Below, in pieces: positions 6,012-8,442 of a DNA stretch of 64,000 nucleotides (its first letter is position 1; each line of letters opens with the position of its first letter). The stretch lies in the NCBI GenBank assembly GCA_965116875.1, contig OZ220733.1, positions 1,472,001-1,536,000 on the forward strand, written 5' to 3'. The DNA is from Candidatus Latescibacterota bacterium. Lineage in GTDB: Bacteria; Latescibacterota; UBA2968; GCA-2709665. The position numbers and the translations under genes were made by a program. The notes under the pieces were generated by a model. It did no database searches, was not told where the DNA came from, and saw nothing but the letters and a program-made list of their open reading frames with translations.

Positions 6012-7334
6012 CTACGGCGGATCGACGGGTACTTTCTGTCTCTTGCTGACCAGCGGGTCGTACGTGAACCCTTCGGAGCGTCTTTCGAACTCCGCGCGCG
6101 CCTTTTTCAATTTCTCCGGGTCCCTGCACAGGTCGACCGCACTACCGGCGAAGACTTTCGCCGTCTGCCGGACCGCGCGATCGGCGAAAGGCAGGGCAGC
6201 CTGCGCGGCCATGTCCCGGTGGTGGCCGGGCGTTCCCTTCGCGTAACAGACCATCTCGAAGCGTCCCAGAGGGGCCAGCCAGGAGACATTGTCCTCGTCC
6301 GTGGATCCCCGTCCCTGCGAGCCGCTGCCTTTGGCGATCTTCGTGTTGAACCCTTTCTTGTAGCCAAGGCCTTCGGCGTGCTTCACGTCGGCTTCCGTCG
6401 GTTTGGGAGGCCCGAAGAGCTTGAGATTCTTTCGGACGATCTCACACATCGCCTTGTTGGGCAGACGCGGGTACACGGCGGTGATTCGCGACCATTTCAT
6501 CTTCGTATCGGTAGCCCTGGCGGCGCCCCGGGCGCAGGCGGTGAGGCGTTCACGCACGTCGTCGACCTGCGCGCGGTCCTTGCCTCGAACGAAGTACCAG
6601 ATCTTGGCATAGGCCGGTACCACGTTGGGTGCGTCCCCTCCATCGCGGATCACGGAATGGATCCTGACGTTCTCGGGGACATGCTCGCGGAGATAGTTGG
6701 CGGCGACGTCCGTAAGCATCACCCCGTCCAGCGCGCTGCGGCCCCGGTGGGCCGACGCGCCGTGGGCGGTGCGGCCGAAGAACTCATAAACGAGGGAGTC
6801 CAACGACGACCCGCCGAAATTGTTGACGCCCGAAGCATCCCCCGGATGCCACGCAAGGCAGACGGCCAGGTCCCGGAAGGCGCCGTCGCGGGCCATGTAG
6901 ACTTTGCCACCCAGGGTTTCCTCCGCCGGACAGCCGTAGTAGACGATTTTGCCCGATACTCCGGTTGATTCAAGGATCTTCGCAGCGGCGACCGCACCCA
7001 CGGCCGGGGCAACGCCCAGGAGGTTATGGCCTCAGCCGTGACCCCATTGACCTTCTTCGGGGCCGCAGTTGGGCAGCGCGTCGTACTCCCCCAGCAGTCC
7101 GACCGCAGGTTCTCCTGCGCCCCGGGTCGCGCGAAACGCCGTGGGAATCTTCTTGAACGGAAATTCAACCTCGAAGCCACGAGAGTCCAGATAGTCCGCG
7201 ATCGCCCGGGAGGACTTGACTTCCCGGAAGGGCCGTTCCGCCCAGGCGTGCACCTTACCCGAAAGTACCCTTGCCCGTTTCGATTCCGCGGCGACGGCGC
7301 GGTTGACGAGACTCTTTTTTTCTTTTTTGGTCAT
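6012..7334 (-). CDS. M20 amidohydrolase (AbgB/HACGH type) with an in-frame UGA at the metal-ligand Cys; candidate selenoprotein (440 aa)
   Basis: Track ORFs 7032..7508 and 6012..7001 are the same frame, joined by TGA at 7034-7032: EYDALPNCGPEEGQWGHG-TGA-GHNLLG. Downstream PAEE, WHP, GRSALD, PNVVP and GSTD motifs are intact. GGGAGG RBS before ATG at 7334. Confidence 0.85.
7002..7031 (-). promoter_or_regulatory. Putative bacterial SECIS hairpin immediately after the in-frame UGA
   Basis: UGA-GGCC AUAACCU CC U GGGC GUU GCCC C GG CC. The apical loop starts with G, 18 nt after the UGA. Confidence 0.55.
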
Positions 7335-7347
7335 GGCACCCTCCCAT

Positions 7348-8442
7348 TCAGGTATCCGGGTTCGCGACGGCATCCGCCACCGCATCGCCCACTTCGTGCG
7401 TCCCGGCGGCGCCTCCGAGATCGGCCGGGTGGTTCTTCGGATCGTCCAGCGCCCGGTCGACGGCGCGGTCGATCGTCTCCGAGGCGGCGATGGCTTCGGT
7501 ATCGTCATGACGTGCGCCCAGCCAGGAAAGCATCATCCCGGCGGAGAGAATCTGCGCCATGGGATTGGCGATACCGCTCCCGGCGATATCCGGTGCGGTT
7601 CCGTGGGACGGCTGGAAGACGCCGTAACGGTCGCCCACGTCGGCCGAGGGCGCCATCCCCATTCCGCCGATGGTTGCGGCGGCCAGGTCCGAGATGATGT
7701 CCCCGAACATATTCTCCGCGACGACAACGTCGTACCAGGCGGGGTTGCGCAACTGGTACACGGTGAATGCGTCCACGTAGGCATAGTCCCGTTCGATGCC
7801 CGGATAGGACTCAGCGACCTCGTCGTAGATCTGCCTGAAAAAGGCCATGCTCTTCAGGATGTTGGCCTTGTCCACTGACGTCACGCGGCGCCTGCCGTCG
7901 GCCGGCGCACCCTTCCGTTGCTTCGCGATTTCAAAGGCATACTTGACGATCCGCTCGGTACCGGCGCGGGTGATCACCATATTGTCCACGGCGAGGCTGT
8001 CTCCCAGCCGGACCCCGGCGCCTCGGGAGGCGTAGAGGCCCTCGGTATTCTCGCGCATGATGACGTAGTCGAGCGGCGGGTTTCCATCCAGAAGCGGAGG
8101 CACGCCCCGGTATTTCTTGATGGGCCGTATGCCGGCGTACAGGTCCAGCTCGAAGCGCAGCGTGAGTTGCGGCGCGATTTCCGTGCCGTCGGGAAAACGA
8201 ACGTCCGGATCGCCGGCGGAGCCGAAGAGTACCGCGTCGGCCTTCCTGCAGGCTTCGAGCGTGGATTCCGGAAGGTCAACCCCGGTCTCGGCGTAGCACG
8301 CGGCGCCAACCCGGTGTTCGGAAAAGGTGAAGCGGAGATCGGGATGCGGTTCCTCGAGCGCCAGTAGCACCTTGAGCGCTTCCGCGACCACTTCCGGCCC
8401 AACGCCGTCTCCGGGGAGTACCGCGATGTTGTACGTTGGCAT
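7348..8442 (-). CDS. Isocitrate/isopropylmalate/tartrate dehydrogenase family protein
   Basis: LPGDGVGPEV, RENTEGLY, VDKANIL, NMFGDIISD, HGTAPDIAG. Confidence 0.93.
   Translation of the reverse strand: MPTYNIAVLPGDGVGPEVVAEALKVLLALEEPHPDLRFTFSEHRVGAACYAETGVDLPESTLEACRKADAVLFGSAGDPDVRFPDGTEIAPQLTLRFELDLYAGIRPIKKYRGVPPLLDGNPPLDYVIMRENTEGLYASRGAGVRLGDSLAVDNMVITRAGTERIVKYAFEIAKQRKGAPADGRRRVTSVDKANILKSMAFFRQIYDEVAESYPGIERDYAYVDAFTVYQLRNPAWYDVVVAENMFGDIISDLAAATIGGMGMAPSADVGDRYGVFQPSHGTAPDIAGSGIANPMAQILSAGMMLSWLGARHDDTEAIAASETIDRAVDRALDDPKNHPADLGGAAGTHEVGDAVADAVANPDT

Follow-up and report, generated by a model that had tools for sequence, protein, structure and literature searches.

A candidate selenocysteine-containing M20D amidohydrolase gene, with UGA at the presumed metal-bridging cysteine site, in a Latescibacterota bacterium

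The reading frame and its conserved UGA

The gene considered here lies on the minus strand at positions 6012..7334 of a 64,000-nucleotide stretch of DNA from Candidatus Latescibacterota bacterium (GenBank assembly GCA_965116875.1, contig OZ220733.1, positions 1,472,001 to 1,536,000; this whole stretch is called the window below), and it encodes an amidohydrolase of the M20 peptidases, subfamily M20D, in which a single in-frame UGA very probably stands for selenocysteine (Sec). Read from 7334 to 6012, it forms one frame of 440 codons that ends in TAG and is interrupted only by the TGA at 7034-7032, codon 101, in the context GGT CAC GGC TGA GGC CAT AAC (G-H-G-U-G-H-N), and gene prediction under translation table 11 cuts this frame into two open reading frames (ORFs), 7032..7508 and 6012..7001. 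A first-pass annotation of the sequence had described the two ORFs as one frame broken by nothing but this TGA, with a good ribosome-binding site, otherwise intact motifs and tightly packed neighbours, all of which is borne out by direct reading and translation: a Shine-Dalgarno-like GGGAGG (7340..7345) stands 5 nt before the ATG (7334-7332), the motifs EYDAL, PAEE, WHP and GSTD are all intact, and the gene belongs to a same-strand cluster of five in which the stop codon of the upstream gene (TGA, 7350-7348) lies 13 nt before the ATG. Since that upstream gene, of the Iso_dh family, stops with TGA, TGA is an ordinary stop codon in the source genome. The annotation had also remarked on an unusual extra cysteine in the motif PNCG, 11 residues before residue 101; the cysteine is real (Cys90, codon at 7065..7067, within a 7-residue insertion, NCGPEEGQW) but not odd for this gene, as it is invariant in 57 of 57 rows of the subfamily alignment and hence a mark of the subfamily.

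The UGA is conserved well beyond the source genome. Of 61 related genomes, 52 were matched at E≤1e-40, and a single in-frame TGA occurs in 49 of the 52, whose proteins are 100 to 68% identical. In a phylum-wide sample of 168 genomes, orthologues at E≤1e-100 are present in 57, and one in-frame TGA is found in 55 of the 57, distributed over families f1, f2 and f3; the two TGA-free matches are that of genome G059 (68% identity), which has HGCGHN with TGC at the same column, and a 45%-identical paralogue. Orthologue frames were located by tblastn anchoring, and HG-U-GHN falls on one alignment column in all 52 TGA-form orthologues whose DNA was read, the other three TGA genomes (G100, G116 and G130) being counted from their "1 TGA" flag. 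A search with the degenerate pattern W-G-H-G-TGA-G-H-N/D returned 36 metagenome stretches, 32 of which are the M20D gene with the same nucleotide block downstream, and the remaining four lie in short frames of no relation to it and match by chance. A TGA that recurs at one column in 52 of the 52 TGA-bearing orthologues read and in 32 of 36 metagenome stretches is far beyond chance. As the first-pass annotation had supposed, this column is that of a conserved cysteine, for it aligns with the Cys of GHACGHN in the M20D enzymes HmrA and PM20D2 and reads TGC in G059; the comparison of TGA with TGY orthologues that it proposed gives TGA in 55 species-level genomes and 32 metagenome contigs with Cys forms at the same position, and independent TGA alleles, the lack of which it would have taken as a sign of nonsense mutation or error, thus occur in three families. 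The public labels of genomes that are 91-97% identical at this gene are inconsistent, being Candidatus Latescibacterota in some and Gemmatimonadota in others.

Proteins in the databases fall into two groups. Among the 120 best matches, 102 have HxCGH together with the upstream Cys, and 18 are truncations of 250-400 residues, at about 320-336, one of which is named by NCBI "peptidase dimerization domain-containing protein"; such lengths are as expected where the UGA goes unrecognised by gene callers. The Cys-form orthologues, from Planctomycetota, Verrucomicrobiota and some Latescibacterota, are 56-76% identical to the Sec form, have the same length, a C-x10-C motif and all the invariant residues, and differ from it in having TGC at the UGA column and no conserved nucleotide block after it; their sources label them amidohydrolase or "aminobenzoyl-glutamate utilization protein B". 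No in-frame TGA was found in 19 matches from 15 of the 200 scored genomes of a Clostridia-class sample, nor in 17 matches from 16 of 301 genomes of a Planctomycetota sample. As far as searched, the Sec form appears to be confined to one class of marine, largely sponge- or reef-associated Latescibacterota.

Purifying selection acts on the protein on both sides of the UGA, a point that the first-pass annotation had proposed to test. Ratios of nonsynonymous to synonymous substitution (dN/dS; Nei-Gojobori method, pairs kept at 0.05<dS<2) are 0.127 upstream and 0.085 downstream of the TGA in genus g1, where all 105 pairs were kept, and 0.099 and 0.081 in family f2, where 238 and 244 of 465 pairs were kept. 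Furthermore, codons +1 to +5 after the UGA read G-H-N-L-L in all 49 sequences and show synonymous pair differences of 0.50-0.68, and this fixation of residues with free synonymous change indicates that the stretch between the UGA and any restart is translated in frame. The restart candidate offered by table 11, a GTG at codon +11, reads GCA in family f2.

The TGA itself, which the annotation had advised to confirm in reads, was checked in public sequencing runs and shows no difference in contigs of four of them, one an RNA library. Logan contigs of runs X1 and X2, possibly the source samples, cover the entire stretch without a difference, and those of a sponge-metagenome run (X4) cover 6012-6956 only. 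A sponge metatranscriptome library (X19) yielded a 223-nt contig over 6859-7081, across the UGA and the block that follows it, with seven differences, none at 7032-7034 and one, at 7020, synonymous; positions that X4 and X19 leave uncovered carry no weight in either direction. The tryptic peptide across residue 101 would span WGHG-U-GHNLLGVAPAVGAVAAAK.

A candidate SECIS element and the selenocysteine machinery

In bacteria, a selenocysteine insertion sequence (SECIS) is sought as a hairpin shortly after the UGA, and the published bacterial model (bSECIS) sets a loop of 3-9 nt, a stem of 4-16 bp, a G in the first two loop positions, a spacing of 16-37 nt and a minimum free energy of -7.5 kcal/mol or below (PMC13188914). 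A scan of synonymous change over a 433-column codon alignment of 49 Sec forms revealed a single dip in the gene, at codons +6 to +13, where the synonymous pair difference falls to 0.039 against a gene mean of 0.47 (8-codon windows, standard deviation 0.069), the next lowest non-overlapping window being at 0.33. These codons make up a 24-nt block, GGC GTT GCC CCG GCC GYN GGT GCG (6993..7016, minus strand), which is near-invariant in 51 distinct sequences from genomes and metagenomes and which we regard as the putative SECIS core. In the DNA of Cys forms, similar residues are found at this site with freely varying codons, and the block is absent.

Two adjacent hairpins are predicted here, both on the minus strand. 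Hairpin A (7007..7017), GGGC-GUU-GCCC, has its loop 18 nt after the UGA and four pairs that are invariant in the 51 sequences, and hairpin B (6990..7005), found as an RNAalifold consensus, GGCCG(C/U)-NGGU-GCGGU(C/U), has 6 bp and its loop 33 nt after the UGA. Both meet the bSECIS limits on loop, stem, loop G and spacing. The folding energies are -8.3 to -9.4 kcal/mol for hairpin B, about -7.4 for hairpin A with its flanks and about -13.7 for the tandem, so that the energy limit is reached by hairpin B and the tandem, with hairpin A borderline. In hairpin B, pair 36:51 is GC in 42 sequences, GU in 6, AU in 2 and otherwise in 1; the closing pair 41:46 is CG in 30 and UG in 21.

Other folds of the region were set aside. 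When the 91 nt from the UGA were folded as one sequence, z was -0.27 and thus uninformative, and the long hairpin around the UGA that this folding proposes needs a GUG at codon +11 that is not kept in family f2. Likewise, the long-range pairs around the UGA suggested by RNAalifold (columns 5-44) depend on W-G and A-P codons that do not vary, and they are broken in orthologue L044. Weak Rfam matches to proV RNA and Hammerhead_HH9 are on the opposite strand and off the region of the UGA and the block.

The machinery for Sec insertion, selA, selB, selC and selD, which the first-pass annotation had asked to be sought in the source genome, is complete there. On the same 5.45-Mb contig we found a tRNA-Sec (73.4 bits, anticodon TCA) with adjoining selB (373 bits) and selA (549 bits), and elsewhere on it selD (366 bits), which has an in-frame UGA of its own; all four score above the curated cut-offs. 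Across the phylum sample, selA was found in 131 of 168 genomes. Of the 55 genomes with the TGA form, 54 have it, and the one that gave no match, G032, is 91% complete and in 430 contigs. Nor was there a selA match in two genomes of one genus, the Cys-form G059 (86% complete) and G055 (90% complete), as would be seen if a lineage that loses the Sec trait has to exchange Sec for Cys.

The source genome contains further genes with an in-frame UGA, all outside the window. The selD gene (L020, G000:C1:1070744, plus strand) reads TCG-U-AAK and has a hairpin UCAGUCC-GGUC-GGACUGA 17 nt after the UGA; a formate dehydrogenase alpha gene (L143, G000:C1:4662142-4664929, plus strand; TIGR01591, 728 bits) reads SRA-U-HAP and has a 7-bp hairpin with a GGUCU loop 18 nt after the UGA; and a gene for a ResA/TlpA-like thiol-disulfide oxidoreductase (L144, G000:C1:4150996-4151985, minus strand) reads GHN-U-DLC and has the hairpin agacg-GGUC-cgucu 18 nt after the UGA. 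The last of these is fused to a choice-of-anchor D domain, with a weaker, below-cut-off match to a GC-type dockerin, and its NCBIfam oxidoreductase matches are all below the cut-offs. A genome-wide scan for a UGA followed by a GGU-loop hairpin returned 523 raw candidates, of which 74 passed a filter; at 60% GC most are noise, and the scan is not a complete selenoproteome. Among the 74, the formate dehydrogenase and the ResA-like gene stood out besides the M20D gene, and selD appeared only in the raw 523. In selD, fdhA and the ResA-like gene, the stem is 5-7 bp long and a GGUC or GGUCU loop lies 17-18 nt past the UGA; hairpin A of the M20D gene shares this local spacing, and hairpin B the local loop motif. 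In a Planctomycetota genome, a selA match (G169:C353:463-1812, 569 bits) was also flagged with one in-frame TGA.

The enzyme, its metal site and competing explanations

The product was identified as an M20 amidohydrolase, as first annotated, by the NCBIfam model TIGR01891 "amidohydrolase" (182.5 bits against a cut-off of 153.75, residues 27-373) and by alignment with HmrA and PM20D2; Pfam reports M20_dimer (PF07687). An AlphaFold2 model built from 57 sequences has a predicted local distance difference test score (pLDDT) of 93.7, and Foldseek places it near HmrA (template modelling score, TM, 0.82), PM20D2 (0.79) and CsAga (0.68), with ILL2 and YxeP also among its matches. The best solved relative is HmrA of Staphylococcus aureus, an M20D zinc peptidase or Met-X carboxydipeptidase (PDB 3RAM, E 4.5e-41; TM 0.82/0.92, root-mean-square deviation 2.1), which shares the two-domain M20D architecture and has GH-x-C-GHN, CPAEE and HPG in register, but differs in its 26-27% identity, in having Cys at the UGA column and in lacking the NCGPEEGQW insertion with Cys90. 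Human PM20D2, a beta-alanyl-lysine or Xaa-Arg dipeptidase (PDB 7YH4 and 8ZEI), belongs to the same subfamily and has GHACGHN (E 2.7e-30), yet it is eukaryotic, 24-25% identical, has Cys instead of Sec and is likewise without the insertion. With identities of 24-27% and Cys90 missing from both, we rejected the idea that the protein is an orthologue of HmrA or PM20D2; the insertion defines a subfamily of its own. The name AbgB appears only in automatic Joint Genome Institute labels of homologues, and no NCBIfam equivalog matched; among the four neighbouring ORFs scanned, there is no M20 protein that could be its AbgA partner.

Residues invariant in the 57-row subfamily alignment are C90, H99, C101 (U in the Sec forms), H103, E138, E139, H163, H191, H226 and H371, and Cys90 is also present in all 102 of the best database matches that show HxCGH. 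The part for residue 101 is suggested by CsAga, an N-alpha-acylglutamine aminoacylase of Corynebacterium (PDB 6SLF), which is placed in subfamily M20D together with HmrA and in which, according to a review of aminoacylases (PMC11511702), a cysteine bridges two co-catalytic zinc ions; this zinc-bridging Cys is the basis for reading residue 101 as a bridging ligand. CsAga is 18% identical and specific for acyl-glutamine, and the equivalence of its Cys column would follow from the HmrA alignment. PMC7804941 contains nothing on a Cys ligand.

The reading that we consider very probable joins these observations. The gene would give rise to a full-length M20D-type amidohydrolase or dipeptidase of 440 residues, in which UGA codon 101 is decoded as Sec by SelA, SelB, tRNA-Sec and SelD; the decoding would be directed by an RNA element of two adjacent hairpins within 45 nt after the UGA; and the Sec would replace the Cys of HxCGH that bridges the two catalytic metal ions in this enzyme subfamily. 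We infer from the sequence evidence that Sec is inserted at codon 101, that Sec101 acts as a ligand of the metals and that the substrate is a dipeptide or N-acyl amino acid. As the other presumed ligands (His103, Glu139, His163 and His371) and the presumed base Glu138 are kept, the enzyme is most likely a hydrolase whose dimetal centre contains a selenolate.

Several observations weigh against this reading. Cys101, His103, Glu139, His163 and His371, which we take to be metal ligands, and Glu138, presumably the general base, are so assigned by alignment and from M20D structures. The Pfam model of the catalytic domain (PF01546, Peptidase_M20) was not reported for the protein at E≤0.001, and many close homologues carry precomputed PF01546. 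At the local spacing of 18 nt stands hairpin A, with a stem of just 4 bp and GUU as its loop, and hairpin B, which has the GGU loop and is the stronger of the two, is 33 nt away. Covariation in the hairpins is close to nil, with 8 of 10 pairs never varying, a single pair changed on both sides (2 cells) and 24 of 500 shuffles reaching the observed score, so that the structure rests on thermodynamics, the fit to a permissive model and sequence invariance. An Rfam search of 6700-7300 (E≤10) returned no SECIS-like match. Because DNA may occur in RNA libraries, the contig of library X19 over the UGA is at most a hint at expression and not proof of transcription. Finally, L044 (G050:C598) is the sole orthologue with an ACA loop in hairpin A (Thr, codon +7), all the others having GUU or GUA (Val); it keeps the TGA and hairpin B, and may help to tell which hairpin matters.

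The most interesting alternative is that Sec is inserted but its role is mainly redox, in place of metal ligation or alongside it, a reversible selenenylsulfide with Cys90 (C-x10-U) providing an enzyme switch or a thiol-dependent activity. Known selenoproteins are mostly redox enzymes with Cys/Sec pairs (PMC13188914), the partner cysteine is invariant in 57 of 57 rows and lies in an insertion missing from HmrA and PM20D2, and in Sapep, which also belongs to M20, a disulfide close to the active site is reported to abolish activity. However, the presumed metal ligands and the Glu-Glu pair are all invariant, as for an ordinary metallohydrolase, and Cys90 is equally invariant in many Cys forms and hence not tied to Sec. 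We hold this alternative to be improbable.

Leaky read-through of UGA happens in bacteria, and a full-length protein without selenium could arise if the UGA were read by a near-cognate Trp, Cys or Arg tRNA, or if a mix of termination and read-through gave it at a low level; that the SECIS assignment is not proven by covariation leaves some room for this. Against it, the UGA falls exactly on the conserved Cys column and alternates only with TGC, a strongly constrained RNA block lies where the SECIS must lie, and selA accompanies the TGA form in 54 of 55 genomes, the Cys form being present in a genome that gave no selA match. Trp or Arg, moreover, would not be tolerable as an essential metal ligand. 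We consider such decoding very unlikely.

Still less credible is a split gene, in which translation stops at the UGA and restarts downstream to give polypeptides of 100 and about 330 residues that assemble. Gene callers do predict C-terminal proteins of 320-336 residues, and the NCBI name given to one of them, "peptidase dimerization domain-containing protein", would fit such a piece; yet codons +1 to +5 are translated in frame, the GTG restart is GCA in family f2 and the Cys/His ligand pair would be lost from both pieces. A recent nonsense mutation, a pseudogene or a sequencing or assembly error has the stop codon itself in its favour and nothing more, and with TGA in 55 independent species-level assemblies, 32 metagenome contigs and the contigs of four runs, and dN/dS near 0.1 on both sides, its chances are negligible.

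Evolution, novelty and gene neighbourhood

The distribution of Sec and Cys was examined on two trees. A FastTree phylogeny of 153 proteins (52 Sec and 101 Cys), in which the Sec/Cys residue was masked as X in every row and the 18 truncated matches and 2 of the 102 motif-bearing matches, shorter than 430 residues, were left out, needs five Sec/Cys changes. In a quick IQ-TREE analysis (LG+C20) of 49 chosen representatives, all 20 Sec forms fall into one clade with a Shimodaira-Hasegawa-like approximate likelihood ratio (SH-aLRT) support of 92; this clade also contains five Cys forms, of which P0006 and P0007 are nested in a family-f2 Sec group supported at 99, and the tree needs four changes, at least two of them forced by starred branches. 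Since all Sec forms share one nucleotide block, the simplest reading, on a tree not rooted by evidence, is that Sec arose once within a Cys family and later gave way to Cys again several times. Three Cys forms that are 74-76% identical (P0002, P0003 and P0008) retain L-L-G-V/T-A-P-A, the residues encoded by the SECIS block, and more distant ones have G-V-G-A-A or similar there; the retained residues may be what an earlier SECIS has left behind in the protein.

To our knowledge, nearly all known selenoproteins are oxidoreductases, and it has long been asked why cells bear the cost of Sec at sites where Cys would seem to suffice. The M20D case would place Sec at a site whose Cys, in this family, serves to bind two Lewis-acid metal ions. 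Cys forms that occur naturally at 70-76% identity, among them revertants within the Sec clade, offer a comparison for the effect of selenium at a non-redox metal site, be it on metal affinity, selectivity, resistance of the ligand to oxidation or pKa. Sec is a direct metal ligand in formate dehydrogenase alpha (Mo/W-Se), the source genome's FdhA included, and in [NiFeSe] hydrogenase (Ni-Se) (PMC13188914), but these are redox enzymes with redox-active metals, in contrast to the Lewis-acid dimetal hydrolase site that the M20D centre would be. A bolder version is that this is the first non-redox hydrolytic metalloenzyme family with an encoded selenolate bridging a dinuclear metal centre, and that the selenolate cycles between a metal-bound active state and a metal-free selenenylsulfide through Cys90 (C-x10-U). 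We hold it to be improbable; if true, selenium would provide a peptide-scavenging enzyme of symbionts, in oxic animal hosts rich in reactive oxygen species, with a reversible switch that resists oxidation or with a changed preference for metals.

The first-pass annotation had thought that such a protein may be undescribed, and the literature is consistent with this. Table 1 of a May 2026 review lists 119 prokaryotic selenoprotein families or subfamilies and includes no M20 enzyme, peptidase or amidohydrolase (PMC13188914), and the words peptidase, hydrolase and M20 are absent from the main texts of PMC13188914, PMC12013277, PMC13326102, PMC2398784 and PMC9312934. No Sec-containing M20 enzyme, peptidase, amidohydrolase or aminoacylase was found in full-text searches of the literature, although supplementary lists (BSepDB, deep-Sep Table S2) could hold one, and release 20 of NCBIfam has no selenoprotein-specific model that matches the M20D protein. 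Both the Sec recoding and the enzyme family would thus be standard, and it is their combination, with selenium presumably at a hydrolytic dimetal site, that is new relative to the table of PMC13188914. As public gene calls shorten the gene to 320-336 residues, a new model would be required in annotation pipelines and in selenoprotein databases. The Sec form is, in addition, a marker for a clade of marine Latescibacterota associated with sponges and reefs.

The gene stands in the middle of its tight minus-strand cluster. The cluster starts with an enolase-superfamily (MR/MLE) gene (9631-8453; Pfam MR_MLE_C, 135.7 bits) and a gene of the isocitrate/isopropylmalate dehydrogenase family (8442-7348; Iso_dh, 309 bits), and after the M20D gene it continues with an M19 membrane-type dipeptidase (6010-4916; Peptidase_M19, 270 bits) and a zinc-type alcohol dehydrogenase (4852-3851; ADH_zinc_N, 68 bits). 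The arrangement is fully conserved within the genus and in part in a sister family. Of 23 related loci (L074-L096), 13 retain all five genes in this order, L086 among them with a partial MR/MLE match, and L085 lacks just the M19 gene. The M20D gene has Iso_dh as its neighbour in 18 of these loci and the M19 dipeptidase in 14, a dehydrogenase is matched over its full length in 17, and 4 have none of the neighbours. The presence of two hydrolases of peptidase type next to an enolase-superfamily enzyme suggests a role in the catabolism of dipeptides or N-acyl amino acids.

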